A stretch of DNA of 64,000 bases from Candidatus Multivoradales bacterium. GTDB lineage: Bacteria; Acidobacteriota; Thermoanaerobaculia; Multivoradales; JAHEKO01. The notes beneath the pieces were generated by a model. It made no database searches and was not told the origin of the DNA. It saw nothing but the letters and a program-made list of their open reading frames with translations. The DNA lies in the NCBI GenBank assembly GCA_965223155.1, contig CBDCVR010000014.1, forward strand, positions 864,001-928,000. Direction: 5' to 3'. Below are positions 27,828 through 42,886 of this stretch, one piece after another (the first letter of the stretch is position 1; the number at the start of each line of letters is the position of its first letter). The translations under genes were made by a program, and so were the position numbers.

Positions 27828-27865
27828 GCCAGCGTAGCGGCCGAGCGAACCCGGATAGGTGCCCA
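27828..27865 (-). repeat. 38-bp copy of an internal mpaA-like gene segment (41540-41577)
   Basis: 36/38 identity by eye; encodes GTYPGSLGRYAG. Confidence 0.85.
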
Positions 27866-27898
27866 AACCACCATTCGAGACGCTAGAATTAGCCTAAC

Positions 27899-30577
27899 TT
27901 GATCGGCGAGCGATTCGCACATTACGAGATCAGCGCCAAGCTCGGTGAAGGCGGCATGGGCGAGGTGTACCGCTCCACGGACACCAAGCTCGGACGCGAG
28001 GTGGCCATGAAGCTCCTTCCGGCCGAGATGTCGAAAGACCCCGGGCGGCTCGAGCGCTTCAAGCGCGAGGCGCAGACCATCGCTTCGCTCAACCATCCCA
28101 ACATCGTCACCATCCACTCGGTCGAAGAAGAGGGTGGGCGTCACTTCCTGACCATGGAGCTGGTCGATGGCCAGACCCTCGACCGCCTCATGAGGTTCGG
28201 CGGCCTGCCGGTCTCCCGGCTCTTCGAGCTGGCGATTCCCATCGCCGACGCCCCTGCCGAAGCCCATGCGCAGGGGATCACCCATAGAGACATCAAGCCC
28301 GCCAACGTGATGGTCAACGGGAAAGGCCAAGTCAAGATCCTCGACTTCGGCCTCGCCAAACTCGCCGAGGACGGCGCTGTTGACGGTGGAACCGCTACCG
28401 AGGCTCTGACCCAAGACGGCTTAGTGGTCGGAACCGTTCACTACATGTCGCCCGAGCAAGCGCGCGGCGAGCCCGCGGACCCGCGCTCCGACGTCTTCTC
28501 GCTCGGCGTGCTTCTCTTCGAGATAGCCACGGGCACGCTGCCCTTCCAAGGCAACAGTTCAGTAGAGATCCTGTCGTCGATCTTGAGAGACGAACCGGCC
28601 TCGGTCTCCGACGTCAACGCCGAGCTTCCGAATCACCTGGGCAGAGTTGTTCGGCGGTGCCTAGAGAAGGATCCCGACAAGCGCTATCAGTCGGCCCTTG
28701 ACATTCGCAACGAACTCCAGAGCCTAAGAAGGGAAATCGACTCCGGGGTGTCGAGGACGGCGGCGGTGCCTCCACCAGCGGCTTCCTCATCCGCTCCGGA
28801 TTGGAAGCGCCTCGTGCCCTATCTGCTCGCGGTCCTGATTGCAGCGCCGTTCACCTGGTGGGCTCTGCGCGATCGCGCCGCCGACCCGCCAGGCTCGGAG
28901 GCCGGCTCGGCGTCCCGCGCCGCAGCCGAGCGCCCGATGATCGTGGTTCTGCCCTTCGAGAACTTGGGCTCACCGGACGACGAATACTTCTCGGAGGGCA
29001 TGACCGACGAAGTGATCAACCGGCTGACGTCAGTGGCGGGTCTTGGCGTCATTTCGCGTACCACGGCTTTTCAGTACTCCACCGAGGGCAAGTCGTTGCC
29101 CACGATCGCTCGGGAGCTGCGCGTAGATCACGTGGTGACCGGCACGGTACGCTGGTCCAAGGGCAGTGACGGACCCAGCCGCGTGCGAATCACGCCACGG
29201 CTGGCCAATGCGGCAGAGGATCGCCAAGTCTGGTCTCAGACCTTCGAACGCGACGTTGCCGACGTTTTTGCCGTCCAAGACGAGATCGCTTCCAAGGTCG
29301 CCGCCAGCCTCGGTCTCGCCTTCGCCACCGCCGAGAGAGCGGCTTTCCAAGGGGCCACCCCCGAGGCATATCAGGCCTACCTCAAGGCGAACTCGCACCA
29401 CGTTCGACCCGGCGGCCATAGCCACGATCTGCGCCAAGCGCTCCGGCTGGCAGAGACCGCGACCGACCTCGCTCCCGGATTCGCTGCGGCTTGGGCTCTT
29501 CTCGCGGAGGCGAACGCCGTCTTCGTGATCTGGGGAAGAGACCTGCGACCCGAGCGCCTCGAGCAGGCGCGAGCGGCCCTGGCACGCGCCCAGGCCCTCG
29601 CGCCCGACTCTCCGGAGGCGATTTGGGCGCGCGCCCGTATTCTCTATGCCGAGGGCGACTACGAGGCGGCCCTCGCGGCCTATCAGGACTTGAATCGCTT
29701 GGAGCCCGCGAACCCACGGGTGGCGAACAGATTGGGCTCGATCTATCGTCGATTGGGTCGCTTCGAGGAGTCGGCCGAAGAGCTCGAGCGGGCAGCAGAG
29801 TTGGACCCCTTGGATGCATCGTCGAATCTGGCCTCGACTTGCGTCATGCTCCGCCGCCACGAGTGTGCGGATCGCGCGAGCTCGCGAGCGATCGAACTCG
29901 TACCCGACCAGGTGATCGGGCACTTCCTGAAGTTCCTGAATCTGCTTCTCTGGAGGGGAGACCTGGAGGCTGCGGCTCAGGTTGCGGCAGGTCTCGAACA
30001 GGCCGAAGGATTCTGGGCGGTCTGGATCAAATACCATGCCGCCCTGCTGGCTCGGGATGGCGCCGCGGCTCTGGCGGTCTTGGATGAAACCTCGCTCGAT
30101 GCGCTGACGCACTTCCGCGGGTACTGGCCCAAGGACCTCCTCAGGGCCAGGGCCTACCGGATCACAGGTGAGGCTGAGGCCGAGCGCCTTGCGCTCGAAG
30201 CGGCTGAGCAGCACCTCCGGGGGGAGCTGGATCGGCGGCCCAAGGACCCCCGGATCTGGGCGACGCTCGGCATTGTTCTGTCTCGCCTCGATCGGCCCGT
30301 CGCCGCAGTCGAGGCCGGCGAACAGGCGGTCTCGCTTTTCCCTCTCGAGCGCGATCCGTATACTGCACCGGCCTTCCTGGTGGATCTGGCGGAAACCTAC
30401 GCGCACAGCGGCCGGCCAGATGACGCGGTCGCGACGCTGGAGCAGGTACTCTCCATTCCCGAATTGTTGACGCCGCACTACATTCAGCTGGATCCGCGCT
30501 GGGATCCACTCCGGGGTCAGCCCGGCTTCGAGCGCATCACCGCAGCAGAGGTGAAGGGGCCGCGCACGTCTCCGTGA
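27899..30577 (+). CDS. Ser/Thr protein kinase 5 (kinase + TM + TolB-N-like + TPR)
   Basis: [17 protein letters not shown]; IVVLPFEN; TPRs. Confidence 0.93.
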
Positions 30578-30626
30578 TCGATTCGAGGCGAATCGATGTC
30601 TGAACCGAGTCGATAGCAGCTGGGTC

Positions 30627-30813
30627 TGGTGGAAGCGCGCTGGGCCACTCCAGAGCGCCCGAGCCACAGACGAGGACGCGACGACCGATGAGCATGCGCA
30701 TCCGGTGTCTGCGGAGCAGATGGCGGAAGCGCATGGGTCGCTCTAGAGCGCCCGAGCCGCAGGCGAGGACGCGACGACCGATGAGCATGCGGGTCCGGTG
30801 TCTGCGGAGCAGA
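30627..30813 (-). repeat. Two ~93-bp tRNA-Sec-3'-end repeat units (array A)
   Basis: Units start 30627 (degenerate) and 30721; begin TGGCGGAAGCGCATGGG on + strand. Confidence 0.92.
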
Positions 30814-30881
30814 TGGCGGAAGCGCATGGGAATCGAACCCACTCCCGACGTGGCATCCCACGCCGGACTACGGTCTTGAAG
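30814..30881 (-). mobile_element. Displaced selC 3' fragment A (att-like junction)
   Basis: 68 bp matching 41115-41182; ends at the anticodon loop. Confidence 0.9.
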
Positions 30882-31019
30882 GTTGGCGCGATCCAACTGA
30901 CGACAACAGTCGGCAGCTGGTAACCACAGCCAACGCAGATGGTTGCGGGGCCCTGTCTTGTTGAGGGCTGTTGCGGAGAGTGGGCATGAGTTGCCGCCTG
31001 CTGCACCACCAGTGCACCA
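30882..31019. promoter_or_regulatory. Conserved att-arm-like module A
   Basis: CAAC at +13/+23, CAGC at +33, GTTG at +61/+79/+89/+109, TGCACCA at 31002 and 31013. Confidence 0.75.
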
Positions 31020-31139
31020 CCAAACCCGCGGTTCAAAGAGTCGAGGAGACCAAGCCCCCCCACAACCCGCTTCTGCGAAGTGCGCGAGCGTTCTGGCGTC
31101 CACCCAAGATCCTCTCACTCGGTGCTCTATACTCCTTCC

Positions 31140-31403
31140 ATGCGGTCTGGAAAGAGCGACACCTCCCCCGACGTCGACGAGATACTCGTCGCGGGCTACC
31201 GCCGCATGACGCCTGGACAGAGGATGGACCGGGTCACCGATCTGAACCGCGCGCTACGCGAGCTGGCCCTCGCAGGTATCCGTCAGCGCCACGGCTCGGA
31301 CCTAACGGCGGAAGAGGAGAAACTCCACCTGGCCGCCCTCTCGATCGACCGGGAAACCATGATCCGCGCCTTTGGATGGGATCCCGACGAGCATGGCCTC
31401 TGA
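31140..31403 (+). CDS. Small DTSP-motif protein, partner of nucleotidyltransferase
   Basis: TATACT-6nt-ATG; DTSPDV..GYRRMTPGQR; paralog of 20797-21039. Confidence 0.8.
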   Translation: MRSGKSDTSPDVDEILVAGYRRMTPGQRMDRVTDLNRALRELALAGIRQRHGSDLTAEEEKLHLAALSIDRETMIRAFGWDPDEHGL

Positions 31404-31986
31404 CGCCGGCGCCGACGCCCTTGAGCTAGCTCTGCGCGTGATCCGGATCCTGGAGGATCTGGGCGCGCCGGCCTGGATCGGAGGCTCGCTCGCCAGCTCG
31501 ATATTCGGGATCCCACGAGCCACGCAGGATGCGGACATCGTTGCCGATCTGCGCGCCGAAATGGTCCGCCCCTTCATCGAGAGGTTGGGTGAACACTTCT
31601 ACGCCGACTCCGAGCGCATCCGCGAGGGCGTCGAGCGGCGGTCATCGTTCAATCTGATCTACCTGCCCACCATGTTCAAGATCGACGTTTTCGTCCTCGG
31701 TCATGATTCCCGTTCACAGCGTGAGCTCGAACGGCGTCGCCATGTCGAGATCGGTGAAGCTCGAGGCCGAGTGCCCGTCACATCGCCGGAAGACATCGTG
31801 GTGCGCAAGCTCGCTTGGTACCGCGACGGGGGCTCGGTTTCCGATCGCCAGTGGCGAGACGCCCTGGGTGTCGCTCGAGTCCAGCGAGAGCGACTCGACT
31901 TGGACTACCTGAGTGGGGCGGCCGACGAGCTGGCGGTTACCGATCTTCTGGACGAGCTGCTCGCGGAGGCGGGGATAGCGCCCTAG
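31393..31986 (+). CDS. Pol-beta-fold nucleotidyltransferase-like protein
   Basis: IGGSLASSIFGIPRATQDADIV, KIDVF, EDIVVRKL, RQWRD; paralog of 20219-20800. Confidence 0.8.
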   Translation: MASDAGADALELALRVIRILEDLGAPAWIGGSLASSIFGIPRATQDADIVADLRAEMVRPFIERLGEHFYADSERIREGVERRSSFNLIYLPTMFKIDVFVLGHDSRSQRELERRRHVEIGEARGRVPVTSPEDIVVRKLAWYRDGGSVSDRQWRDALGVARVQRERLDLDYLSGAADELAVTDLLDELLAEAGIAP

Positions 31987-31996
31987 CAGGCATACC

Positions 31997-32347
31997 TCAA
32001 CCTTCGTTCCTAGCTGCCTCTTTGATGGCTGCGGTGAGAAGCTCCTTGCCGGGCCAGTCCTGGCAGTCCTGGTAGCGATAGGCGAGACGAACGACGCCAG
32101 CCTGATCCACGACGAATTCGCCGGGTAAGAGCCAGGGATTGGCCACCAACGCTGTTGCGGAGCCGTGGCGGGACTGCTGCAGTTCGCGCCCGGTCTCGAA
32201 GTCGAATCGCATGTACTCCTCCGGCGCGTCGTCCATGATCTGTGAGACTTGGCCTTCGAGAAGGTCGAACGCGTTGTATGCGCTATATGTCGGATCGGAC
32301 AGGATAGGAGTTGGCAGGTCCTGCGCCTCGTCCAGCTGGACACCCGT
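31997..32347 (-). pseudogene. 5'-truncated AhpC/TSA peroxiredoxin-like fragment
   Basis: Frame gives LPTPILSDPTYSAYNAFDL...LPGEFVVDQAGVVRLAY; no N-terminal active site, stop upstream. Confidence 0.6.
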
Positions 32348-32530
32348 TCAGCTATCGGGAAACCAGGGATGTGAGCGATCAAGAAGCTGGGCCTCCTACT
32401 CCGCTCCCACTCCCTCTCAGGCGGACTGGTGCGAGCACTACCCAGTGCGCAGGAGCGGGATCCCGCCCCCCGCGGAGGCCCCTCGCCCCAGCCGGAGTCC
32501 ACGAGGCTCGCGCCCAGTGAGATGCTGCGC

Positions 32531-32556
32531 TAAAATCTTGCTAGCAATTGATAGCA
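32531..32556 (+). promoter_or_regulatory. -10 box and palindromic operator of RelBE-like operon
   Basis: TAAAAT 32531-36; TGCTAgCAATTGaTAGCA inverted repeat 32539-56. Confidence 0.65.
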
Positions 32557-32569
32557 CCAGGGAGATTCA

Positions 32570-32788
32570 ATGGCTACCGTACAGATCAACGCCCGAGTGG
32601 ATCCGGCACTGAAGAAGGCAATCGACGAGTACTGTCGCTCACGTGGCGTGGTCCTCAACCACTTCGTTCAGGAGGCGTTGATCGACCGCCTCGAGGAGCT
32701 CGAGGACGTCGAGGACCTCAAGAGCATCCGCCATGAGCCGACGCGCCCACTAGCTGAGGTGCTCTCCGAGCTCGATCTCGATGGCTAG
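32570..32788 (+). CDS. Ribbon-helix-helix antitoxin
   Basis: VQINARVD RHH-like N-terminus, acidic C-terminus, overlaps toxin gene. Confidence 0.8.
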   Translation: MATVQINARVDPALKKAIDEYCRSRGVVLNHFVQEALIDRLEELEDVEDLKSIRHEPTRPLAEVLSELDLDG

Positions 32789-33041
32789 CTACGCGATCGA
32801 GATCTCGAGAAGCGCAGAGAAGCAGCTCAGGAAGCTAGCCCGAGGCGAACAGGAGCGGATCGTCAGCGCGATTCTGCCACTAGCCCAGAACCCCCGCCCG
32901 CGCGGCGCCCGGAAGCTATCCGGCTACGACGACGTCTTCCGGATCCGTGTTGGGCACTATCGGGTTCTCTACAGTGTCTCGAGCGGAACCCTGGTCGTCA
33001 TCGTTTTGAAGATCGGTCACCGGCGCGACGTCTACCGATAG
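32781..33041 (+). CDS. relE: RelE/ParE family toxin
   Basis: AEKQLRKL, NPRPRGARKLSG, FRIRVGHYRVLY, IGHRRDVYR. Confidence 0.9.
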   Translation: MASYAIEISRSAEKQLRKLARGEQERIVSAILPLAQNPRPRGARKLSGYDDVFRIRVGHYRVLYSVSSGTLVVIVLKIGHRRDVYR

Positions 33042-33059
33042 CGGTCAACGGTAGAAGTA

Positions 33060-33299
33060 CCTGGCAGAACCCTGCTCGAGCTCGCCGCGCTCGTGTCCGG
33101 GGCCCTAGAGGCTGCGGGCATCGTCGCGACACTGTCGGGTGGAAGCGCCGTGTCCGCCTACACCGAGAACGGCTACGAGTCGGCGGATCTCGATTTCGTG
33201 ACGTCCGCTCTTCGGGAGACCCTCGAACCCGTCCTGCGGCCCCTGGGCTTTGTAGCTGCGCAGAATCCTCGCCTTTCGGTCGTCTTCCGGCCGAGGTGA
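33060..33299 (+). pseudogene. Truncated nucleotidyltransferase fragment
   Basis: LELAALVSGALEAAGIVATLSGGSAVSAY..SADLDFV then premature end. Confidence 0.65.
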
Positions 33300-33386
33300 T
33301 AGCACCCGCCGCCCACGAGAAGCCCCCGCCAGTCGAGCCAGACTCTGTAGGCGGCCAGGCCGTGACAGCGGTGCCGGGCCAGCCGT

Positions 33387-34025
33387 TCAGAAGTTGTAGC
33401 GGAACCCGGCCGTGAGGCTGAACGACGAGTAGTCGACCGCTATCGGCTGTGCACCGACGGCCGGCGCTGTCTCGAAGGCGCCGTCCTCCGTGGCGTAGTA
33501 GCGCAAGCTGAAGTCGACGATCCAGTGCTCGTCGACGTCGATCCCCACGCCGGCGAGGAACTGCCATGCGAACAGGGTGTCCTCCGCAGAGACGATCTGG
33601 GGGTTCTCGTCGGTGCCGAAGTCTGTCAGCTCGATCTCCGCCCAACCGATCCCGGCGCCGACATAGGGGGAGACCCGCTTGTCCTTGTTGAAGTCGTACA
33701 CGATATTGCCCATGCCGGCTTCCGATTGGACGTCACCGCGTGATCCGGCCTGATCGACTCCGTTGAGACGGTGTACATCGACGTCGGTCTCGCGGGGAGT
33801 GTCGAGCTCGCCGTCGAGGCGAAAATGTTTGAATTGGTACCCGCCCCCGACGCTCCAGAGGTACCCGTCATCGAGCAATGTCTCGATGGCGCCGGCATCG
33901 ACGTCGAACTCGATATCGTCCGCGAAGTTCGCTCCGACGAAGGCTTGCACGTACCAGCCACCGGTGGCGGCAGGAGCTGCCACGAGGGTCAAAAGCGTGA
34001 AAACTACTGATCGGACGGTTCGCAT
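33387..34025 (-). CDS. Outer membrane beta-barrel protein (opacity/porin-like)
   Basis: Signal peptide; SPYVGAGIG, FAWQFLAG, terminal GFRYNF. Confidence 0.88.
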   Translation of the reverse strand: MRTVRSVVFTLLTLVAAPAATGGWYVQAFVGANFADDIEFDVDAGAIETLLDDGYLWSVGGGYQFKHFRLDGELDTPRETDVDVHRLNGVDQAGSRGDVQSEAGMGNIVYDFNKDKRVSPYVGAGIGWAEIELTDFGTDENPQIVSAEDTLFAWQFLAGVGIDVDEHWIVDFSLRYYATEDGAFETAPAVGAQPIAVDYSSFSLTAGFRYNF

Positions 34026-34097
34026 GGGCTTCCTCCGTTTGTTGCGTGTGCCGTCCCTATGCGTTCCGAGTTGCTGCGCGGGACTAAGAATAGCAAG

Positions 34098-35381
34098 TCA
34101 ATGACCTGCGACCCAGCTCCAGAACGCCAGGTGATCCTGGTCTTTGACCAGTACGCCTCCGTCGACAGGAACGAGATGAGCCCATGTTGAGCTCTCCGCG
34201 ACCGCATAGCGCGCAAGCTCATCGTAGCTCTTGTCGTTGTCGCTCAGCACGATCAGTTCGGCCGAACCCGTGAGGGCGAGGATCGCCCCATCCACGACAA
34301 GGAGCGATGCGTAGTTTCCTGTTCGCCCGGGGCCGGTCCACAGGATCTCACCACTTGCCGCGTCCAGGCTGAAGATGCGGCCCTTGTCTTGGTGCGAAAG
34401 ACCGTAGATACGGCCATCGCTCTGAACCGGTGAGCTCATGTCCATCGCCAGCGAGTCGATCTGCCACGCCGGTTCGACCGACCAGCCGTCGGCGCCGCTC
34501 GAGGCCCGCAGCGCGATGATCCCGCGGCCCTTGCCGCTGATCACTACCAGGTCGCCGACGGACAGCGGGGTCACGATGTTGTGATGCACCATCGACTGCG
34601 GGAAAGTGTAGCGCCACCCGGGCCGACCCGTTTGTACATCGAAGCTGACGACCGCCTCTGCGCTGATCGTCACGACCTGCTGCGAGCCACCGAAAGCGGT
34701 GACGATCGCGGACGCATAGCTCGCCCCGTCGCTCGAGCCCGCCCAGACCTCTTCACCCGTCTCGACGTCGAACGCGATCACGCCACCGTCCTTGCCGCCG
34801 AAGTTGGAAATTACCCGCGAGCCATTCACCAGTGGAGATGCCGCCGCGCCGAAGTGTGGCAATGTCTTCTTGAAGCGATCTGCGAAGTCCTCCCGCCACA
34901 ACAGCTCGCCGCTGTCGGCGGCCCAGGCCGAGAGCACGCCGGTGATGCTGGTCGTAAACAGCCTCTCACCGTCGTAGGCGGGGCTGGCCTTGGGACCCGG
35001 CCCATGGCGACCCGAACCCATCCGGGGATTGAACGGCACGGCGTAGCGCTGGCTCCACAGAACCCCGCCACTGGCCAGCTCCAGGGCGCGTACCACCTCG
35101 TGCCCATCCTCACGGGACTGGACGAACACCCTGCCTCCGGCAACCACCGGAGCGGAGTAACCCGAGCCGACGCGGACCCTCCAGCGCCGCTGGAGCTCCT
35201 CGGGCCAGGCTTCGGGTACCGTGAACCCCACCGCGGTTCCGTCGCGTTCGGGACCGCGCCAGCCGGGCCAATCCGCGGCCCCGGCCAGACTCAGTTCTTC
35301 CCCATGCGCGAAAGAGGACCCCAAGGCAACCGCTACTGCGGCAATCGCCCAGATCGTTGATCTCCAGGTCGTGGGTCTCAT
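34098..35381 (-). CDS. PQQ-binding-like beta-propeller repeat protein
   Basis: DWPGWRGPERDG, GYSAPVV, repeated ..G..LW blades. Confidence 0.88.
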   Translation of the reverse strand: MRPTTWRSTIWAIAAVAVALGSSFAHGEELSLAGAADWPGWRGPERDGTAVGFTVPEAWPEELQRRWRVRVGSGYSAPVVAGGRVFVQSREDGHEVVRALELASGGVLWSQRYAVPFNPRMGSGRHGPGPKASPAYDGERLFTTSITGVLSAWAADSGELLWREDFADRFKKTLPHFGAAASPLVNGSRVISNFGGKDGGVIAFDVETGEEVWAGSSDGASYASAIVTAFGGSQQVVTISAEAVVSFDVQTGRPGWRYTFPQSMVHHNIVTPLSVGDLVVISGKGRGIIALRASSGADGWSVEPAWQIDSLAMDMSSPVQSDGRIYGLSHQDKGRIFSLDAASGEILWTGPGRTGNYASLLVVDGAILALTGSAELIVLSDNDKSYDELARYAVAESSTWAHLVPVDGGVLVKDQDHLAFWSWVAGH

Positions 35382-35625
35382 CCGTATCAGTGCTTCAGCG
35401 CCAGCGTTCCCACCTATGTCTGCTCCTTCGTTCGTCCGTGGCTCGCCGATGCTACCGCCATGCGTTGCCACCACCGCGAGCCCCAGCGCTCGAGGAGGGC
35501 ACCGAAGGCCTCGAGCCGAAGGCGGCATCGGCAGCAGGAATCGCTCCGAGTGACCGAGCCGAAGGCGAGGGAACGACGACCGCGTACCCAGGCGGTTCCG
35601 TCCATCTCCTCGCGACGCCAGCAAA

Positions 35626-35718
35626 TGGCGGAAGCGCATGGGTCGCTCTAGCGCGCCCGAGCCACAGGCGAGGACGCGACGACCGATGAGCATGCGCGTC
35701 CGGTGTCTGCGGAGCAGA
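35626..35718 (-). repeat. 93-bp tRNA-Sec-3'-end repeat (array B); degenerate extra unit about 35537-35582
   Basis: Same unit as arrays A and C. Confidence 0.9.
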
Positions 35719-35786
35719 TGGCGGAAGCGCATGGGAATCGAAGCCACTCCCGACGTGGCATCCCACGCCGGACTACGGTCTTGAAG
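35719..35786 (-). mobile_element. Displaced selC 3' fragment B (att-like junction)
   Basis: 68-bp match to 41115-41182. Confidence 0.9.
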
Positions 35787-35963
35787 ATTGCCGGGATCCA
35801 ACTGACGACAACTGTCGGCAGCTGACAACCACAGACGCACAAGGTAGTTGCGAGGCGTCGTGTTGATGAGGATTGCTGAGCCGAACGGCCGGAGGTTGGC
35901 GTCTATTGCACCACCAGCGCACCGTAAGAACCGCTGTTCGGACGCTAGAGTCGGCCTGACTTG
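35787..35963. promoter_or_regulatory. Conserved att-arm-like module B plus kinase-type promoter
   Basis: CAAC +13/+23; TGCACCA 35907 and CGCACCG 35918; TAGAGT-N9-TTG 35946-35963. Confidence 0.75.
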
Positions 35964-36154
35964 CGCATCAGACGGGCCTCACTCGCTTCGCTCGCTGAGC
36001 CGAACTTGCGAACACCAGCTTCAAGCCGCCAGGGGCGCAGGCCATAGGCCAACTCGGTCAAATCGCAGGCGATTCTCAGGTTCTCAGAATCGAGTGGTCT
36101 CAGTCTTCTGGGACCAGGCATCTCAGCCACGGACGTGTACTTGGTAACAGGCAC
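35945..36154 (-). CDS. Small protein downstream of nucleotidyltransferase
   Basis: MPVTKYTSVAEM..GVRKFGS; abuts NTase stop. Confidence 0.65.
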   Translation of the reverse strand: MPVTKYTSVAEMPGPRRLRPLDSENLRIACDLTELAYGLRPWRLEAGVRKFGSASEASEARLMRKSGRL

Positions 36155-36637
36155 CTACGAGCTCTCCTCGTCCAGATCGAAGGCCTCGCGAATCCTCGCG
36201 GCGTCCGCGCGATCCTGGGGACGCACGGTATCCCGCTTCATGCGGTACAGCATTCGGGGGCTGGCGACACGAACCTTCAGATCCCCCAGGTCGATCTCCT
36301 CACTCCCCGACGCGAGATCCTCCCACGAGAAAGCCTCCCCGAGCCGGGTCAAGAAGTCCAGCGAATACCGACCGTGCGGTGGAACGTACTCGACTGCCGG
36401 ATACCTGCCCGCAAGCTCCTGAGGGTCGATTTCATCGATGCTGGAATCGTCGAAGAGAGACTTCAGAGCCCGCTTCAGAGCTTCGAGATTGTCGAGCGCT
36501 GGCGCCACGAAAAGATCCAGATCCTGAGTCGCTCGTGGAAGGCCCTGCGCCGCCATCGCCATCGAACCGATGACGACGAAGTCGACGCCCTCGTTCACCA
36601 AGGCTGTCAATACGGCCTTGACTTCTTCAAATGTCAC
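36155..36637 (-). CDS. Nucleotidyltransferase family protein
   Basis: VVIGSMAM..GLPRATQDLDLF, MKRDTVRPQDRAD. Confidence 0.85.
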   Translation of the reverse strand: MTFEEVKAVLTALVNEGVDFVVIGSMAMAAQGLPRATQDLDLFVAPALDNLEALKRALKSLFDDSSIDEIDPQELAGRYPAVEYVPPHGRYSLDFLTRLGEAFSWEDLASGSEEIDLGDLKVRVASPRMLYRMKRDTVRPQDRADAARIREAFDLDEESS

Positions 36638-36763
36638 AACATTCCCTCATAGCCATTGTATTTCAGGGCTTCTGACGATAGCTCTGGGCTCAGCCTGGCA
36701 CAGCCCGGCACGCAGTCGCTCCGGGCACGATTGTGGCCTTCGCGGTGGTCGGTCTGAAGCGAA

Positions 36764-37042
36764 CGGCGGAAGCGCATGGGTCACTCTAGAGCGCCCGAGC
36801 CACAGGCGAGGACGCGACGACCGATGAGCATGCGCATCCGCTGTCTGCGGAGCAAATGGCGGAAGCGCATGGGTCACTCTAGAGCGCCCGAGCCACAGGC
36901 GAGGACGCGACGACCGATGAGCATGCGCATCCGCTGTCTGCGGAGCAAGTGGCGGAAGCGCATGGGTCGCTCTAGAGCGCCCGAGCCGCAGGCGAGGACG
37001 CGACGACCGATGAGCATGCGCGTCCGCTGTCTGTGGAGCAGA
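36764..37042 (-). repeat. Three tandem 93-bp tRNA-Sec-3'-end repeats (array C)
   Basis: Units start 36764, 36857, 36950; period 93. Confidence 0.95.
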
Positions 37043-37110
37043 TGGCGGAAGCGCATGGGAATCGAACCCACCCCCGACGTGGCATCCCACGCCAGACAAC
37101 GGTCTTGAAG
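37043..37110 (-). mobile_element. Displaced selC 3' fragment C (att-like junction)
   Basis: 68-bp match to 41115-41182. Confidence 0.9.
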
Positions 37111-37248
37111 GCTGGCGCGATCCAACTCGCCACAACTGTCGCCAACAGATAGCCACAGAAGATCGAGTTGGATGTGGGCCGCTGGCCTGTTGGCGACTGT
37201 TGAACACAGTGGTCAGGAGTTGCCGTCTACTGCACCAGGAGTGCACCA
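37111..37248. promoter_or_regulatory. Conserved att-arm-like module C
   Basis: CAAC +13/+23/+33; GTTG +79/+89/+109; TGCACCA at 37231 and 37242. Confidence 0.75.
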
Positions 37249-37284
37249 TGAAGAACAGCATGCTATCCGTGCTATCATGCTCCC

Positions 37285-37578
37285 GTGATCCGCTCTTTCG
37301 GAGATGTCGGCACCGAAGACATCTTCAATGGGCGTAACACCAAAGCCGCGAGGCGAACCTGCCCTCGGAATCTCTGGCAGGTAGCAGTGCGGAAGCTGGA
37401 GCAACTCGACTCCGCCGAGAATCTCGATGACCTCAGGGTGCCGCCGGGCAACCGACTCGAGGCCCTGACCGGCAACCGAAGTGGGCAATTCAGTGTTCGG
37501 ATCAACAGTCAGTACAGGGTCTGCTTCGCCTGGTCCGAAGCGGGTCCTGATGAAGTCGAAGTTGTCGATTATCACTAG
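37285..37578 (+). CDS. higB: HigB-type (RelE-fold) toxin
   Basis: MIRSF, RKL..LD.A..L.DLRVPPGNRLEAL.G.R.GQFSVRINSQYRVCF; TATCAT-6nt-GTG. Confidence 0.92.
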   Translation: MIRSFGDVGTEDIFNGRNTKAARRTCPRNLWQVAVRKLEQLDSAENLDDLRVPPGNRLEALTGNRSGQFSVRINSQYRVCFAWSEAGPDEVEVVDYH

Positions 37579-37590
37579 GGAATAGCCATC

Positions 37591-37905
37591 ATGGTCCGAG
37601 TACCCACACATCGCACACCGACTCATCCCGGGGAAATGCTCCTGGAGGAGTTCCTCAAGCCGATGAAGATGAGCCAGAGCGATCTCGCCAAGAAGATCCA
37701 TGTCCCCTACCAGCGGATCAACGAGCTGGTGAACGGCAAGCGCGGCATCACGCCGGCTACCGCCCTTCGGCTCGCCAAGTTCTTCGGGATGTCGGCCGGG
37801 TTCTGGATGAACCTCCAGCTCCGCTGGGACTTGTTTCACGCTCAGCGAGCTGAAGCCGAGGAACTGAAGAGGATTCGAAAGATCCGCCGGCCAGTCGGAG
37901 TGTGA
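37591..37905 (+). CDS. higA: HigA antitoxin (HTH)
   Basis: PTHPGEML.EEFL.P, RINELVNGKRGIT..TALRL..FWMNLQ. Confidence 0.93.
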   Translation: MVRVPTHRTPTHPGEMLLEEFLKPMKMSQSDLAKKIHVPYQRINELVNGKRGITPATALRLAKFFGMSAGFWMNLQLRWDLFHAQRAEAEELKRIRKIRRPVGV

Positions 37906-38071
37906 GGTAGCAGCGGCCCCCGCACCAGGACTACGACTTCACCTTCCCAAGGGAGGTCGCAAGGGGCAGTGGGCAAGTCGCAATCCAACAGGTGACAACG
38001 GCCGGCAACTCGTAACCACTGCTGTACAGAGAGGTTGCGACCTGCGAACCGCCGGTTGAGTCGGACATCGA

Positions 38072-40908
38072 TTACGCCGCCTCCCGTGCCTCCAACTGCT
38101 CGAGCACCGCTTGCCTCTGGCGCTCGCGCTCGCGGTCCCAGTCGGCAATGATCTCCTTGAAGGATGGGTCGTCGAGAAGCACGCGAAAAGTAGGATCGAG
38201 GCTCGGGTTGACCGCGATCCAGCGGGCTTCGACCAGCTCGCGCCACACGTCGATCGCTTCCTCCTCACGACCCTCGAGGACAAGCACCCTCGCCCGTGCA
38301 AGTTGCATCTGCGGATGCACGACTCCGGCCGCGCGAGCCTCGTCACAGTACGCCCTGAGCTCGGTGAGCAAAGCCTCGGCTCCAGCCGAGTCGCCCGTCG
38401 CCCGTCGAGCCTGGATGAGCCAAACCGCGCCCTGATCCCAAAACGCAGCAAAGAGAGCCCGACGTGCCCTACCGTCTTGTCCGCCAGCGGCTCGAGGTAG
38501 CCGCGGGCGGCCTCGGCATCGCCCGCCCAGAGGTGAGCTCGCCCTGCCATTTCGGACGAGAAGGTGCTCGGATGCTCTCGAGCCCAGGTGCGAGCGAACG
38601 CGGCGGCCTCCGCGAATCGACCCGCTTCTTGCAGAGACACGACTCTTTCGAGGGGTCCCGTCCTGAGCTCTTGCGCTCGGTCGAAGAGTCCCAAGATGCT
38701 GTAGAGGTAGCTCAGGAAGCGTCCGATGGAGGCGTCCTCGGGTGCCAGCTCCAGCGCCCGCAGTAAGCCCTTGTGCTGTTCATCCCCGTGCCCCCTTATC
38801 CGGTGGAGCGCCGTCAGGGCCTTGTAGCTCGCCGCGTCTCCCCGGACTCGGACCAGCCTCTCCGCCGTTTCGCGAGCCTCGTCGTAGCGGCCCCTCCAGC
38901 TCGCCACAACGACCCAGTTCTGGACCGCCACATAGGACAGCGGATCCAGGGCCACCGCCCGCTTCAAAGCGGCGAACCCTTCGTCGTAACGGTTGAGATC
39001 GACCAACGACTGCGCTCGCCAAAGTACCGCTCGCGCCATGTTGGGGCTCTTCGCGAGAGCCCTATCGAACGTCGCAACGGCTTCTTCGTGAAGTTCCCGA
39101 TTCTTGAACAAGAGTCCCTCGGCGACCTGGACCTCCGGCGAGTCCGGAGCCAGCAACCGGGCGCGCTCGATCAGAGGCTCGACCCGCGCGATCGCCTCGG
39201 TCAGCGGGATGTCACCGTAGTGGCCGGGGGTGTCCTGCAGAAGAAGGGTCGTCTCCACCAGCGCAGCGTAGGCCGGCGCGTACTCGGGGTCGAGCGCGAT
39301 CGCTGTCTCGAAAGACCCAAGGGCCTGCTCCAAAGGCTTCTGACCACGCTTCTCCATCAAGTAACGGCCCTCCAGATAGGCGCTATAGGCCTCCGTACTC
39401 GCGCTCCGCACCGCCTCCGGAGCCTCGGCCGCGAGCCCCAGCTTCTCCTCGAGCGCCGCGACGATCGAACGTGCGATCTCGTCCTGGATCGCGAACACGT
39501 CCTCAAGCTCACGGTCGTAGGTGTCCGACCACAGGTGAAAGCCCGAGTCGGCGTCGATCAACTGGGCGGTGATCCGGAGCGTCGTGCCGGCCTTGCGCAC
39601 GCTTCCCTCGAGGACGTTCTCCACCTCCAGGGCCTCGGCGATCTTCTTGACATCCTCGTTCTTGCCCTTGAACGCGAACGACGACGTGCGAGCGGCGACC
39701 TTCAGACCCGGGAGCCTGGCCAGGAGATTCAACAGCTCCTCCGAGATCCCGTCCGAGAAATACTCCTGATCGCGCTGCGGGCTCATATCGGCGAAGGGGA
39801 GCACCGCGATCGAGGCGTGGCCGGCCTCGACGGCGGCCTGACCGGCGGTCTCTCTGGGCGAGTCTCTTCCCGTGCCGAACCAGAAACCGGCTGCGAGCGC
39901 TACGGCCAGGGCTGCCGCTCCCAGCCCGATCCAGAGACTCCGACTCGAAGGCGTCGCGCTCGACTCGGTCGTTGAAGCCTGTGCGCGTTCCGGAGCCGCT
40001 GGCCCGGCCGCCGCTGGAGCCGTGACCGACACAGATGCAGCGACGGCATCCCGCTGCAGCCTGCTGAGGTCGGCTTTGAGTTCGGAGGCGTGCTGGTACC
40101 GAAGCGTCTTGTCCTTCTCGAGCGCCTTGTCGAGGATGCGTTCGAGCTCGTCGGGCAGATCCGGGTTGATGCGGACCGGGGCGGTCGGGGCCTCGCTCAG
40201 AATCCGATTGAAGATCGCCCCGGCGGTCTTGCCAGCGAAGGGCTGCTTGCCCGTCGTCATTTCGTAGAGCACAACTCCCAGCGAGAAGAGATCGGTTCGC
40301 GCGTCGAGCTCCTCTCCGCGCACCTGCTCGGGCGACATGTAGGCAACTGTGCCGATCGCAGTGCCGGGAGTCGTCAACTGCTCGCGAGCCGGCTCGGTCT
40401 CGGCATCTTCGGAGTGGGACTCCCGTCGTGCCCGGTCTTCGCTCACCTTGGCGAGCCCGAAGTCGAGCACTTTGGCGTCACCGCGGCGGGTCAGGAACAG
40501 ATTCGCCGGCTTGAGGTCGCGATGGACTATGCCTGCACCGTGCGCTGCGTCCAAGGCATCCGCCACCTGAGCACCGAGTCGGACTACCTGCTCGACGGAC
40601 ATTGGCTCGCCGCTGATCCGGTACTTCAGGGTCTGGCCGTCCATCAGCTCCATGACGATGAAGGCGCGGCCCTCCTCCTCCCCCAACTCGTGGACCGTGC
40701 AGATGTGCGGGTGGTTGAGCGCCGATGCCGCCCGGGCCTCGCGCTTAAAACGCGCCAGCGCTTCGGGATCCTCGGCCAGTTCGTCAGGTAGGAACTTGAG
40801 TGCCACCCGCCGGCGCAGCGTCAAGTCCTCCGCCTGAAACACCACTCCCATCCCGCCACCACCGAGCTTCTCCAAGATCTTGTAATGGGAGACAGTGGTT
40901 CCAATCAT
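38072..40908 (-). pseudogene. Ser/Thr protein kinase 6 (kinase + TM + TolB-N-like + TPR), frameshifted near 38455
   Basis: Intact kinase motifs; family-typical C-terminus ([18 protein letters not shown]) lies in another frame ending at TAA 38072. Confidence 0.8.
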
Positions 40909-41018
40909 GGGACCCGTCCTGTCGGGAGACTCCTTTCTCGTCAGGTTGCTCGAATTCTAGCGGAGCGGTGTCTTCGCAAACCAACGGAGGAACCTCACTT
41001 ACCGCCTTGGCGGCGAAA

Positions 41019-41114
41019 TGGCGGAAGCGCATGGGAATCGCTCTAGAGCAGCGTCGCCGTCAGGCGGCGGTGCGACGACCGATGACCATGCGACTCGGCC
41101 ATTCGCATAGCGAA
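41019..41114 (-). repeat. 96-bp divergent version of the tRNA-3'-end repeat directly downstream of selC
   Basis: Shares TGGCGGAAGCGCATGGG, GCTCTAGAGC and GCGACGACCGATGA blocks. Confidence 0.88.
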
Positions 41115-41214
41115 TGGCGGAAGCGCATGGGAATCGAACCCACCCCCGACGTGGCATCCCACGCCGGACTACGGTTTTGAAGACCGCGGGAGGCACCAGC
41201 CCCCGAGCGCTTCC
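41115..41214 (-). tRNA. selC: tRNA-Sec (anticodon UCA)
   Basis: 8-bp acceptor GGAAGCGC/GCGCTTCC, 6-bp D stem with 4-nt loop, loop CTTCAAA, long variable arm, 5-bp T stem with TTCGATT, G73 and CCA. Confidence 0.97.
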
Positions 41215-41221
41215 GCGGGGG

Positions 41222-41227
41222 ATTGTA
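41222..41227 (-). promoter_or_regulatory. -10 box of selC
   Basis: TACAAT 7 nt upstream of the mature 5' end. Confidence 0.65.
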
Positions 41228-41338
41228 CGGCAGGAGGCGCCGGGCCGACTGGCGGCTCGTCGCACCGGTTTCTTGGCTGGAACGAGCGGCGGTCTGTGTC
41301 GCGGCCACCGCTGGCACCCCTCGACGGCTAGTGCTTCG

Positions 41339-42742
41339 CTACTCGCCGCCGAGACCCGGAGTCTCGGCTTCGGCCGGAGCGTCGGCATCGGCCGCCGCGG
41401 TCAGGTCGGGCCGCTGCTTGGGCACGTTGACCTTGAGCCAGGCGATGAGGTCGCGCCAGATGCGAAGCTGCTCGGCCTCGCTCACCATGATGCCCGCGCT
41501 GGGCAGCTCGATAGTGACCACGGGCAGGCCCAGATGGACGCCGGCGTAGCGGCCGAGCGAGCCCGGATAGGTGCCCATCTGTTTCAGGTAGAGGGAGCCG
41601 AGTTTTTCTGGGGGCTCCGGCGGGCCGTCGTAGTCAACGACCTTGCTCGGAGCATGGACGGAGACGATCGCCGACGGGCGGAAGGTCTGGATCTGATCGA
41701 AAAGCCACTGAGACTCGGGCTCGCTCAAGGGGTCGGTACCGGGATACCGGCGCGGATTCCGTGACGTACGCCGGATCCAGTAGTCCGACGCCTCGACGTG
41801 CCAGTTGGGGCTCGGAAAGTTGCGGTTGAGATCGACGCCATGCTCGTTCATGCGCTGCGCCTTGGAGCGCAGCAGGCCGTCGGGATTCAAGAGCGGCACC
41901 ACCCGCCAGTGAAACATCCCCGAGTGGTTGCGCTGGAGGATCGACAGCCATTTGAAGACGATGGAAACCGAGGAGTACTCGTCTCCGTGAATGCCCCCGA
42001 AAAGCAGCACCCGGCCGAGCGACTCGCGAGCGGCAAGGGGCGGGAACTCGGCCATCAGAATGGGGGCGCCGTTGACCGAACGGGCGCCCGTCGTGGCAAG
42101 CCGGCTGTCGACGCAATCACTCCGATCAACGCTCCCCAGCTTGCGACCGATCCGTCCGCACAGGTCGAGACGTGCGGTGTTGACGGCGTCTGGACTCTGA
42201 GCCGATGGATCGACATCCTCGAGAGCCGAGTGGGCACTCTCGGTATCGCCGACGACCGTGTCGGCAGCAGCCGGCGTCTGCAGCGCGGAGTGCGAGGCCA
42301 TCCCGGCCTCAGCCGCCGGTGTAGACGAAACGGCCGGACTCCCGGCGAGATCCTCGCCGGGCGGGCGATCCGAGTCGTGGGCTGGGTCTCCGGACGCGTC
42401 GGATCGAACGATCTGTTGGCTCTCGACGGCTTCGGACTCCGGACCCGGAGGCTCCGGATCTCCCGCCGCAGCAACCGAGGCTTCCTTGCCGCCGGCGCCT
42501 CGGACGTCTGTAGGTGCCAGGTGCCGCGCCAGGTAGGTGACCCCCAAGACCAGCGCGCCGAGGATCAGAAGGGTCGTCAGCGCGCCCCAGGGCGAGTCGT
42601 CTTCGGCCTCCAGCTCGGCCAACTCGATCGATTCGGTCGAATCGGCCTCGGGCGAAGCGGGCGAACCAACCAGATCGGACGCCTGGGGCGACTCCGGAAG
42701 CTCGGCCTCGATCGGCTCCGGGTCTCGTTCGTCGTCGGTCAT
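41339..42742 (-). CDS. mpaA: M14 murein peptide amidase A-like zinc carboxypeptidase with N-terminal TM and acidic linker
   Basis: GGIHGDE, NPDG, GVDLNRNF, SEPE, SVH, PGSLG, TIEL motifs. Confidence 0.85.
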   Translation of the reverse strand: MTDDERDPEPIEAELPESPQASDLVGSPASPEADSTESIELAELEAEDDSPWGALTTLLILGALVLGVTYLARHLAPTDVRGAGGKEASVAAAGDPEPPGPESEAVESQQIVRSDASGDPAHDSDRPPGEDLAGSPAVSSTPAAEAGMASHSALQTPAAADTVVGDTESAHSALEDVDPSAQSPDAVNTARLDLCGRIGRKLGSVDRSDCVDSRLATTGARSVNGAPILMAEFPPLAARESLGRVLLFGGIHGDEYSSVSIVFKWLSILQRNHSGMFHWRVVPLLNPDGLLRSKAQRMNEHGVDLNRNFPSPNWHVEASDYWIRRTSRNPRRYPGTDPLSEPESQWLFDQIQTFRPSAIVSVHAPSKVVDYDGPPEPPEKLGSLYLKQMGTYPGSLGRYAGVHLGLPVVTIELPSAGIMVSEAEQLRIWRDLIAWLKVNVPKQRPDLTAAADADAPAEAETPGLGGE

Positions 42743-42886
42743 GGTTCTTCGCGCTAGCCGTCGCGGCTCGCTGGAGCCGATCGGGTCATCCTGGCTCAGA
42801 CACTCGGCTCTGGCTGTGGAACGTGTTACGGCCCCGGCCGGAAGTGTATCGCTATACTGCCGGCGCTCACCGGTCGGACGAACCGC

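Follow-up and report, generated by a model that had tools for sequence, protein, structure and literature searches.

The selC locus described here is probably an accretion stack of integrase-less mini-islands resembling cis-mobilizable elements (CIME-like), recombined site-specifically and ferried by integrase-bearing relatives, a reading to which we give a probability of about 0.6. The stack looks like cargo dropped or ferried by a conjugative-type island family, rather than a new integron-like machine.

The recombination modules downstream of selC

The single tRNA gene detected by ARAGORN in the window (the whole 64,000-nucleotide stretch analysed) is tRNA-Sec, which Rfam scores at 73 bits (gathering score, 47), and the genome also encodes selA and selB. 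This intact selC is the attB/attL end of the stack. Downstream of it, a 68-nt copy of its 3' part recurs three times in one shared orientation (37043-37110, 35719-35786 and 30814-30881), with 3, 3 and 2 differences, respectively, from the final 68 nt of selC. Identity to selC begins at the anticodon loop, and the base just 3' of the anticodon is G in all three copies and A in intact selC. The start-to-start spacings are 4072, 1324 and 4905 nt. A 17-mer from the tRNA-Sec 3' terminus occurs nine times in the 4.0-Mb genome, each time within the selC locus, so the copies are not due to chance. An initial annotation had reported exactly these copies, their break at the anticodon loop and segments of 4.1, 1.3 and 4.9 kb. 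The 68-nt repeat that it recognized is part of a larger one, consisting of a rigid arm of about 137-140 nt upstream, the tRNA-Sec copy, and one to three tandem 93-nt units downstream, every unit terminating in the last 17 nt of tRNA-Sec.

41115-41214, minus: selC, intact tRNA-Sec, anticodon TCA (ARAGORN; Rfam RF01852)
41019-41114, minus: 96-nt unit abutting selC, a diverged copy of the 93-nt unit, ending in the last 17 nt of the tRNA; fold z-score -3.65
36764-37249, minus: module 1; arm 37111-37249 with arm-type pair 37231-37247, tRNA-Sec copy 37043-37110, three 93-nt units 36764-37042
35541-35925, minus: module 2; arm 35787-35925 with variant pair 35907-35923, tRNA-Sec copy 35719-35786, 93-nt unit 35626-35718, diverged unit 35541-35625
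30627-31020, minus: module 3; arm 30882-31020 with pair 31002-31018, tRNA-Sec copy 30814-30881, two units 30627-30813

The modules are 82-87% identical to one another across 316-393 nt and the DNA between them is unrelated, the recombination module being conserved despite its unrelated cargo. Within each arm lie two arm-type sites as a direct pair, two CAAC motifs and three GTTG motifs in 10-nt phase. A scan recovered 26 arms from 20 sources; counted from the arm-type pair, the anticodon loop starts at position 138 in 23 arms and at 137, 139 and 147 in the remaining three. This 138-position plan is independent of the tRNA to which the arm is fused (Sec, Ser(TGA), Leu(TAA), Leu(TAG) or Lys). 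Across the 4.0-Mb genome, the strict motif of the pair is matched eight times, always within an att arm, and no arm is present upstream of intact selC. The arms of two contigs of genome G002 show a single mismatch in ~176 nt as far as the 3' side of the loop, after which they continue into different tRNA-Sec alleles. The arm represents the P side of an attachment site for a tyrosine integrase, and the junctions are real att-type sites produced by recombination at the anticodon loop.

The arm is not under overall constraint, since its identity between this genome and G001 is 85.2%, compared with 85.7% for the third codon positions of HigB and 90.5% for those of HigA; this counts against the CIME-like reading. 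By a post hoc count, none of the 22 arm differences from G001 falls in the hexamer motifs. In the 93-nt unit, an inner core is conserved and the 5' strand pairs with the copy of the tRNA end; an Rfam scan of these units gave no match. Such units, which bear no arm-type pair, form the tRNA-proximal (P') ends of the cassettes, where the pair is confined to the P arm. In all five integrase-bearing elements examined, a second arm-type pair is found 72-104 nt past the tRNA end, just ahead of the integrase start, and the P' arm is AT-rich. The lambda-type attP layout, with arm-type sites on both P and P', is thus seen in these five elements and not in the cassettes.

Cargo and decay of the stack

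The genes and remnants recognized between and beyond the modules are as follows.

37939-40908, minus: 989-aa Ser/Thr protein kinase carrying TPR repeats, cargo gene of the cassette next to selC (Pfam Pkinase, 162 bits)
37979-38040, minus: what remains of a decayed arm-proximal block (blastn E 2.6e-5 against arms c2 and c3)
37591-37905, plus: HTH antitoxin HigA (Pfam HTH_3, 47 bits)
37285-37578, plus: HigB toxin (Pfam HigB-like, 64.5 bits)
36155-36637, minus: truncated AbiEii-like nucleotidyltransferase ORF, 160 aa (PF08843, 32 bits, profile positions 8-166 of 238)
33281-35540, minus: PQQ-OMP cassette; block 33281-35642 is common to G052, at 90% DNA identity
~34098-35417, minus: PQQ-type beta-propeller gene (Pfam PQQ_2, 131.6 bits)
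33387-34025, minus: beta-barrel OMP gene (Pfam OMP_b-brl, 63 bits)
31080-33299, plus: second cassette, fused to its neighbour; no module now separates it from the OMP gene (ParE_toxin, 52 bits; antitoxin and NTase matches below cut-off)
33093-33299, plus: NTase-like fragment (match below cut-off)
32781-33041, plus: ParE-family toxin (Pfam ParE_toxin, 52 bits)
32570-32788, plus: small antitoxin ORF, 72 aa, upstream of the ParE toxin (matches below cut-off)
31372-31986, plus: NTase-like ORF (match below cut-off)
31080-31403, plus: small ORF, in the fused cassette with the ParE-family toxin
24834-27590 and 27899-30577, plus: two more Ser/Thr kinase genes (Pfam)
24781-24836, and weakly 27866-27901: decayed arm-distal remnants just upstream of the two kinase starts (blastn against arm c2, E 1.2e-9 and 0.16)

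HigB and HigA (37285-37905) make up a discrete cassette about 0.85 kb long, whose proteins are 96-98% identical in G001 and 81-92% identical in G052, in different contexts there. The N-terminal part of the selC-proximal kinase gene has 77% DNA identity to a kinase gene in the G052 array. Judged by a toxin domain above its Pfam cut-off next to a small antitoxin gene, HigBA and the ParE-family pair are type II toxin-antitoxin (TA) modules. The initial gene calls held for the kinase, HigBA, the propeller and the OMP, and the toxin that had been called RelBE is a ParE-family one with a small antitoxin. The supposed NTase pairs reduce to the truncated AbiEii-like ORF, which is the sole recognizable cargo of the 1.3-kb segment, the others being sub-threshold or motif-level matches only. 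A further correction is that segments 1 and 3 are each made of two fused cassettes. Retention of every cassette by a TA module, as had been proposed, is not general: in the arrays of relatives, the cargo consists mostly of kinases, which are common, surface-repeat proteins and enzymes.

The remnant at 37979-38040 marks a module lost between the kinase and HigBA cassettes, and the kinase genes at 24834-27590 and 27899-30577 are probably older cassettes whose modules have been lost. From these remnants, including the weak one at 27866-27901, it follows that the stack formerly had more modules and extends to about 24780. One observation counts against the accretion order: the kinase cassette nearest selC should have arrived last, yet its arm is the most decayed.

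Integrases and arrays in related genomes

The window was found to be free of integrases, as the initial annotation had stated: a whole-genome profile search with PF00589, PF00239 and PF00665 gave no match within it, tblastn with 10 integrases detected no remnant in it, and Pfam scans of its ORFs revealed no integration or transfer genes. The nearest tyrosine recombinase matches on the contig lie ~50 kb past the window end and ~480 kb ahead of its start. No integrase fragment was found in any of 14 array sequences searched.

Integrases adjoin selC in G017, G008, G004 (same genus) and G040. The search for a related integrase in this genome, which had been suggested as a check, was positive. The closest one shares 71-72% identity with the G017 integrase; it is intact and lies beside tRNA-Lys, in an 18-kb IME/ICE-like island that is bounded by a 45-bp repeat and carries the same arm-type motif, its pair matching that of module 1 at 17 of 17 positions. 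This island encodes Replic_Relax, two T4CP-like ATPases and a primase, all of them common to the G017 selC island. The arm plan could be aligned between the G040 selC island, the tRNA-Lys island and attR-type arms on other contigs of G004, G008 and G017. The core target of the tRNA-Lys integrase differs from selC, which counts against the CIME-like reading. The arm would belong to a single family of tyrosine integrases; the IME/ICE-like islands that carry this family (integrase, small HTH-like ORF, Replic_Relax, two TraG/TrwB-like ATPases) seem to target the anticodon loops of several tRNAs. Our search found no integrase-bearing element with a unit-type P' end. The family integrases are broken in G003 and G052, both of which bear arrays. 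In G022, a deletion scar adjoins selC, where a P' pair without integrase is followed by an arm-proximal block.

Integrase-less arrays comparable to the present one were found in 11 of 45 family genomes (arm-only matches, 1-6 per genome), most relatives being metagenome bins in which repeats are prone to misassembly. The array of G052 has 8 modules in 20.5 kb. Across genera, cassettes are 90-92% identical, versus only 83-84% for rpoB: the PQQ-OMP block is 90% identical in G052, which belongs to another genus, and the HigBA cassette 92% in G001. The ends of the shared blocks coincide with a tRNA copy or an arm, their order and neighbours vary by genome, and a unit-like P' end accompanies the PQQ-OMP cassette between genera. 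The cassettes are thus discrete and horizontally exchanged between lineages, and the comparison of selC loci that had been proposed did reveal varying content and order. The initial annotation had opposed its model to one of large integrase-bearing islands in relatives with an unvarying set of cassettes; such islands, with the same arm plan, do occur at selC in relatives, one of the same genus, but the cassette content varies.

Origin of the stack and comparison with known systems

In the CIME-like reading, each cassette ends in an attR-type junction, where the P arm meets the displaced tRNA-Sec 3' part on the 3' side of the anticodon loop. Cassettes would enter at selC via site-specific recombination, the newest lying beside the tRNA. 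We infer the catalyst of these moves and the route. Most likely, carriage would be in cis, an integrase-bearing relative integrating alongside the cassettes and excising by use of the distal attR; a resident relative, for example the tRNA-Lys island integrase, could possibly serve in trans. After insertion, modules decay and adjacent cassettes fuse. Independent integration of free cassette circles is doubtful because the cassettes have no tRNA-proximal arm-type pair, which is present in all integrase-bearing members. Of the original proposal that a trans-acting integrase inserts small cassettes sequentially, the att-type junctions, integrase-less segments and variable order therefore stand, whereas the free circles do not fit well, the P' pair being missing. 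Simple internal deletion of integrase-bearing elements is also insufficient, because the tRNA-proximal ends of the cassettes are 93-nt units and not an AT-rich P' arm.

The last point bears on a rival that we consider unlikely: the segments may be inert fossils of successive full-size selC islands gutted by deletion, which never moved as units, the similarity across genomes reflecting transfer of the parent islands. The selC islands of four related genomes that bear an integrase and share the arm plan, the G022 locus with all deleted between the P' pair and the arm-proximal block, module decay in the window, arm divergence near the synonymous rate, and arrays in G003 and G052 next to broken family integrases only are all consistent with it. 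However, besides the unit-type ends, 0.85-kb and 2.4-kb cassettes recur in three genomes with both ends at att cores and with changed neighbours and order, all 14 array sequences searched are free of integrase fragments, and dozens of independent deletions would be required, each sparing one or two genes and an intact arm.

It is conceivable, but we hold it to be quite improbable, that the locus is a tRNA-anchored integron analogue, in which the 137-nt arm and the tRNA core form a portable recombination site, single-gene cassettes circulate among Thermoanaerobaculia, their integrase is supplied by sibling IME/ICE-like islands, entry takes place at selC and other tRNA genes, and the tRNA-linked 93-nt minihelix unit is the second cassette end. 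The integron-like platform of the initial annotation appears likewise improbable. There, an integrase acting in trans captures free circles (unit, cargo, arm and core) at selC, from which they can be excised one by one, arm plus core corresponding to attC and selC to attI. Cassettes of one or two genes, up to 8 in tandem, with a conserved module around unrelated cargo would suit it, as would the unit-like end moving with the PQQ-OMP cassette, the intact hexamer motifs, and a resident intact integrase whose arm-type pair is identical to that of module 1; against it, no integrase is linked to any array, the P' side has no arm-type sites, some array-bearing genomes have no intact family integrase, modules decay, and retention by TA modules is not general. 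An integrase-free origin, by segmental duplication of the selC 3' region or RecA recombination between units with the arm as a duplicated flank, would explain the similarity of the modules and the varying number of 93-nt units, as from unequal crossing-over, but is close to refuted by the unrelated inter-module DNA, the armless intact selC, the arm shared with integrase-bearing islands at other tRNAs, and identical arms whose junction with different alleles of tRNA-Sec falls precisely at the anticodon loop.

The rtT repeats of E. coli tyrT are tandem units downstream of a tRNA gene, each ending in a copy of the tRNA 3' terminus. The 93-nt units are likewise tandem and terminated by the tRNA 3' end, but they differ in sequence and size, and in their conserved inner core and paired 5' strand. 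Integrons stack one- or two-gene cassettes, each with a recombination site, next to a fixed point of entry, and in some genomes they hold many TA modules. The selC stack similarly consists of small site-bearing cassettes beside a fixed entry site. It differs in having no linked integrase (no tyrosine recombinase match adjoins the array in the window) and apparently no attC-type folded site and no common promoter; its sites are lambda-type arms with direct arm-type repeats and a tRNA core.

Tycheposons and the Prochlorococcus islands share with it tRNA-gene stacks split by partial tRNAs, in which newcomers push older elements inward, and degenerate remnants and extra partial tRNAs scattered in the islands (10.1101/2020.12.28.424599). 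Tycheposons are, however, defined by their own integrase and replication genes, and regular arm-bearing integrase-less cassettes are not described for them in the consulted part of that work. The tDNA islands collected by Islander, as far as the available part of its description goes (PMC4383910), resemble the selC locus in an intact tDNA followed by same-orientation 3' fragments, a crossover centred on the anticodon loop and an attP of a few hundred bp; here too, the fragments lie on the correct side of selC. Islander accepts only integrase-holding candidates of at least 2 kb and requires an integrase for each member of an array, counting 125 tandems of at least two and 4 of at least three among 3919 islands (PMC4383910). 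Its design excludes integrase-less arrays like the selC stack, in which no integrase is present and segment 2 measures 1.26 kb.

The closest parallel is offered by CIMEs, for which a three-step scheme, covering CIMEs and accretion, has been published from work on Streptococcus ICESt1 and ICESt3 (PMC5704250). Compared with the elements of that account, the selC units are much shorter, at 0.85-4.9 kb with 1-2 genes each, and there are more of them, 3 intact ones in this window and 8 in G052. They retain only the P-arm side of the parental site, the other end being a tRNA-linked 93-nt unit, and they occur in uncultured Thermoanaerobaculia, where cis-mobilisation is our proposal. In favour of descent from ICEs or IMEs by decay are the arm common to IME/ICE-like islands and the G022 scar; against it, the P' end is a unit and not the parental arm. 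As in the CIMEs of that account, the selC units carry no integration or transfer genes of their own in the window and keep att sites derived from the 3' end of the target gene, the 68-nt copies bounding all segments with an integrase-family arm at each distal end; they form a tandem stack at a single site, and they have autonomous kin with a tyrosine integrase and conjugation-type genes (PMC5704250). This fit of the published scheme to the selC stack was counted in favour of the CIME-like reading.

The selC module and its copies

The window holds a single tRNA gene, selC, which is expected to be in use since the source genome encodes both SelA and SelB. Downstream of the gene, reading along the minus strand, its last 68 nt recur three times. 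The main features of the locus are as follows.

Features of the selC locus, from selC outward
41115-41214, minus strand: intact tRNA-Sec (TCA) gene, selC; Rfam score 73 bits
41019-41114: diverged copy (96 nt) of the 93-nt unit, trailing selC
37979-38040: arm-proximal remnant between the kinase gene and HigA
37043-37110: 68-nt copy in module 1, 3 differences from selC; 93-nt units at 36764-37042
35719-35786: 68-nt copy in module 2, 3 differences; 93-nt units at 35541-35718
30814-30881: 68-nt copy in module 3, 2 differences; 93-nt units at 30627-30813
27866-27901: weak remnant
24781-24836: arm-distal remnant upstream of the kinase gene at 24834

The base 3' of the anticodon is A in intact selC and G in all three copies. 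The terminal 17 nt of tRNA-Sec occurs nine times in the 4.0-Mb genome, every time inside the selC locus. The initial annotation had described the copies correctly in coordinates, orientation, spacing and breakpoint at the anticodon loop, and was also right that the window is free of integrase genes: none of the seven PF00589 matches of the genome falls within it. The 68-nt copies are thus real, but the repeated module is larger than first noted. Self-comparison of the window revealed, around each copy, a block of 316-393 nt (82-87% identity) composed of an upstream arm, the 68-nt copy and one to three tandem 93-nt units ending in the 17-nt tRNA terminus. Intact selC is also trailed by one diverged unit. 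When the module was searched for elsewhere in the genome with blastn, the two short matches obtained corresponded to an arm of a tRNA-Lys island and to the decayed remnant at 24781-24836.

The region 5' of selC (41339-43804) holds two genes, one M14 peptidase-like and one VanY-like. Eight of the nine relatives compared do not share it, members of the genus included; the exception is G020, where the order is inverted. Synteny upstream of selC (10 genomes) was uninformative, given flanks that vary even between genomes of one genus.

Arm plan and the associated integrase family

Scanning of 20 sources provided 26 arms. The arm spans 137 nt from a hexamer pair to the anticodon loop, the loop starting at 138 nt from the first base of the pair in 23 arms and at 137, 139 or 147 nt in the other three. 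The hexamers are direct repeats of GGTGCA or GGCACA, 11 nt apart, and are accompanied by CAAC at fixed positions and by three GTTG in 10-nt phase. This one plan is joined to the 3' parts of tRNA-Sec, tRNA-Ser(TGA), tRNA-Leu(TAA), tRNA-Leu(TAG) and tRNA-Lys(TTT).

A tyrosine integrase gene lies directly downstream of selC in four relatives: G017, G008, G004 (same genus as the source genome) and G040. The selC island of G040 (21 kb) is bounded by the same 68-nt repeat, and that of G017 (about 30 kb) by a 27-32-nt repeat. The arm at the far end of the G040 island follows the cassette arm plan, as do attR-type arms located on further contigs of G004, G008 and G017. In all five integrase-bearing elements examined (these four and the tRNA-Lys island of the source genome), the hexamer pair recurs on the opposite side, immediately ahead of the integrase start and 72-104 nt past the end of the tRNA. 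Its type is identical on both arms of each element, being GGTGCA in G040 and the tRNA-Lys island and GGCACA in G004, G008 and G017. The strict pair has eight matches in the whole source genome, all within att arms.

Strict-pair matches in the source genome
selC modules: 2
tRNA-Lys island arms: 2
near tRNA-Ser(TGA) on contig C15: 2
small contig C3: 2

Its position and the agreement of pair type across arms lead us to infer that the hexamer pair is a candidate arm-type binding site of the integrase family.

The source genome encodes an intact integrase whose island carries the same arm-type pair and which is a possible candidate for the trans-acting enzyme envisaged in the initial annotation. 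This integrase, from the tRNA-Lys(TTT) island (C14 383507-384550), shares 71-72% identity with its selC-adjacent counterpart in G017 and 56-64% with the counterparts in G040, G004 and G008, and the P-arm (distal) pair of its island is identical to that of selC module 1 at 17/17 positions. The island (C14 365500-385400, locus L034) measures 18.3 kb, has an exact 45-bp repeat at its bounds and a G+C content of 0.585, compared with 0.66 for the contig. Besides the integrase, it encodes Replic_Relax, two TraG/TrwB-like ATPases, a primase zinc-finger protein, RadC and a DNA methylase. It shares with the G017 selC island the integrase (71%), an adjoining 78-aa ORF (78%; HTH_17 likeness below threshold only), one ATPase (52%) and Replic_Relax (36%). 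This gene set and its sharing with the G017 island indicate that the integrase-bearing members are IME/ICE-like. A Schlafen/AlbA_2 protein and a SEC-C protein are also encoded in the tRNA-Lys island. A further family integrase (C7 24405-25271, L036), truncated at its N-terminus where a 25-kb contig of lower G+C (0.616) stops, is 48% identical to the tRNA-Lys enzyme and 49-51% to the selC-adjacent ones of G017 and G040.

The tRNA-proximal ends of the cassettes are made of units and not of the P' (tRNA-proximal) arm of the integrase-bearing members, and no integrase-bearing element with a unit-type end was found. The unit folds as a minihelix formed between its 5' strand and the copy of the tRNA 3' end (ending in GCCA; z-scores -1.6 to -3.65). 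Its inner core comprises a 10-nt and a 12-nt box with, between them, a variable hairpin that shows compensatory changes; no Rfam family matched. The core pattern was matched in 8 of 151 genomes of the order (reversed control, 0).

Units or unit cores at loci elsewhere
L024: about 2330-2500
L023: 7470-7690
L053, L055, L058, L052: further unit or unit-core loci

Five of six inspected unit-core loci follow a tRNA or tRNA fragment, namely tRNA-Leu(CAA), tRNA-Glu(CTC), tRNA-Glu(TTC), an unnamed fragment (G022) and a tRNA-Sec copy (G046), the exception being G099, with no tRNA nearby. The 5' strand is altered to fit the local tRNA. A unit-like stretch travels with the PQQ-OMP cassette. As units with tRNA-end copies also trail selC in array-free genomes, for example G020, the cassette lineage may have acquired its attP by the copying of a selC-unit locus in a chromosome.

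Cargo, exchange and decay

An arm-only query matched 11 of 45 family genomes (1-6 matches each). One unpublished genome, G005, was counted in this and some other tallies but supports none of the claims. In G022, three segments follow selC (about 2.0, 2.0 and 2.8 kb), and an arm and a copy mark the end of each. G003 carries at least four modules over two contigs, G015 a single one, and G052, from another genus, eight within 20.5 kb of selC. No integrase fragment was detected in 14 array sequences, the only matches coming from an over-long G040 ORF running through the tRNA. In relatives, each segment bears one or two cargo genes, whose products include Ser/Thr kinases, Lcl_C and FG-GAP proteins, a BBE-type oxidase, an amidohydrolase, SnoaL, DsbA, DsbB, an alcohol dehydrogenase and an IS3 transposase. 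The proposal that a toxin-antitoxin module retains each cassette did not extend to relatives, as none of the 26 cargo ORFs of these arrays matched a toxin or antitoxin family. Toxin-antitoxin genes were found in the source genome, G001 and G052 only, HigBA of the latter two being detected by tblastn alone. A 16-kb part of the window contains three large genes for Ser/Thr kinases that have TPR or beta-propeller tails (24834-30577, 37939-40908), and similar kinases are the commonest cargo of relatives' selC arrays. Small ORFs of the window (31080-31403, 31997-32236, 32139-32612, 35848-36147, 36135-36422 and others) gave no Pfam match.

Several blocks are shared between genomes. The PQQ-propeller and OMP block (33281-35642), which ends at a 17-nt tRNA terminus on one side and within about 20 nt of an arm on the other, is 90% identical to that of G052. 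For the HigBA cassette and its arm, identity is 92% with G001 and 85% with G052; in G001 the cassette takes up only about 0.85 kb, delimited by two tRNA copies. The rpoB region of these genomes is only 84% (G001) and 83% (G052) identical to that of the source genome; the cassettes being more alike, the shared accessory blocks are judged from these identities to be younger than the lineages holding them. Comparison of selC loci also confirmed that cassette order varies: kinase and HigBA lie closer to selC than PQQ-OMP in the source genome, whereas the order in G052 from selC outward is PQQ-OMP, HigBA, kinase. The arms on two G002 contigs differ at a single position over about 176 nt, as far as the 3' side of the anticodon loop, beyond which the contigs run into different tRNA-Sec alleles; this places the exchange point at the loop. 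G003 likewise has a mixture of two alleles. This allele switch argues for site-specific recombination.

Locus L020 of G001 (contig C207, 6415 nt) bears three arms (1504-1718, 2864-3078, 5012-5226) joined to parts of tRNA-Leu(TAG), tRNA-Leu(TAA) and a truncated tRNA-Sec, with a lone arm-type pair at 4887. It looks like cassettes of different tRNA sites travelling together.

In the source genome, a second integrase-less stack with arms of the same family (GGCACA type) lies downstream of tRNA-Ser(TGA) (C15 725844-725933).

Positions at the tRNA-Ser stack and on contig C3
C15: 715824 and 723397-723611 (L049)
C3: 33 and 3965-4179 (L048)

The tRNA-Ser 3' part joined to the C3 arm is unlike the C15 copy in its variable arm and T stem, and so may come from a foreign donor. 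An IS3-type transposase is also present on C3, which ends inside an arm, the probable reason for the assembly break.

Signs of decay were also detected. The copies do delimit three segments, as initially annotated, but the first and third each consist of two fused cassettes, given the remnant at 37979-38040 and the absence of a module separating the OMP gene from the ParE pair. The stack is likely to reach as far as about 24780. In G022, a P' pair lies 73 nt past selC, followed by an arm-proximal block with no integrase; this selC-adjacent configuration is a deletion scar. The family integrase is present in G003 and G052 as broken copies only. Between the source genome and G001, the arm (85.2% identity) is no better conserved than HigB third codon positions (85.7%). 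None of the 22 arm differences falls in the hexamer motifs, which is only suggestive since the motifs were defined partly from these sequences.

Sequencing runs were examined for excision products or circles; four of one study shared 0.77-0.97 of the sampled words and eighteen others 0.07-0.09. Assembled contigs of runs X19, X21, X22 and X1 break off at every module. The in-array joints obtained (35835 to 37231, 37252 to 41115) have just 22 letters on the shorter side, inside repeated arms. Run X1, which shared only a small part of the words, contained relatives (90-95%) of the PQQ/OMP, HigA and NTase-like parts, to which no weight is given.

Origin of the stack and comparison with known systems

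We considered whether the array arose by duplication or through RecA. This was rejected: the DNA between modules is unrelated, no arm precedes intact selC, the arm is common to integrase-bearing islands at other tRNAs, and the same arms join different tRNA-Sec alleles at the anticodon loop. The idea that arm and copy form a second tRNA-like gene was dismissed on a single 23-bit tRNA-Sec match at module 1 (gathering score, 47), beyond which Rfam gave no match over units or arms (29000-43000, E up to 1).

Sequence comparison leads us to conclude that the junctions are genuine att sites belonging to a defined integrase family and that site-specific recombination built up the stack. Cassettes may move in cis with a visiting element, in trans via the tRNA-Lys integrase, or no longer.

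The locus ties an arm with a two-sided motif pair to its likely integrase family, and a single arm plan is reused across five tRNA targets. Integrase-less stacks hold the variable genes of a tRNA hotspot in 11 of 45 family genomes. A concrete, testable pair exists within one genome, made up of the integrase from the tRNA-Lys island and the cassette sites at selC. Cassettes mobile alone would represent a second, unrelated path to integron-like gene shuffling; if they are not mobile alone, the stack is a clean natural series of cargo shedding and decay by conjugative-type islands.

According to passages of PMC4383910, island finders accept no candidate that lacks an integrase or falls short of a minimum size, and stacks of this kind are therefore invisible to them. 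Set against the passages of PMC5704250 that concern cis-mobilizable elements (CIMEs), the locus fits best as a CIME or accretion stack in miniature, in an unusually regular form. Comparable stacking, with partial tRNAs and remnants, appears in the portions of bioRxiv 10.1101/2020.12.28.424599 dealing with tycheposon islands.
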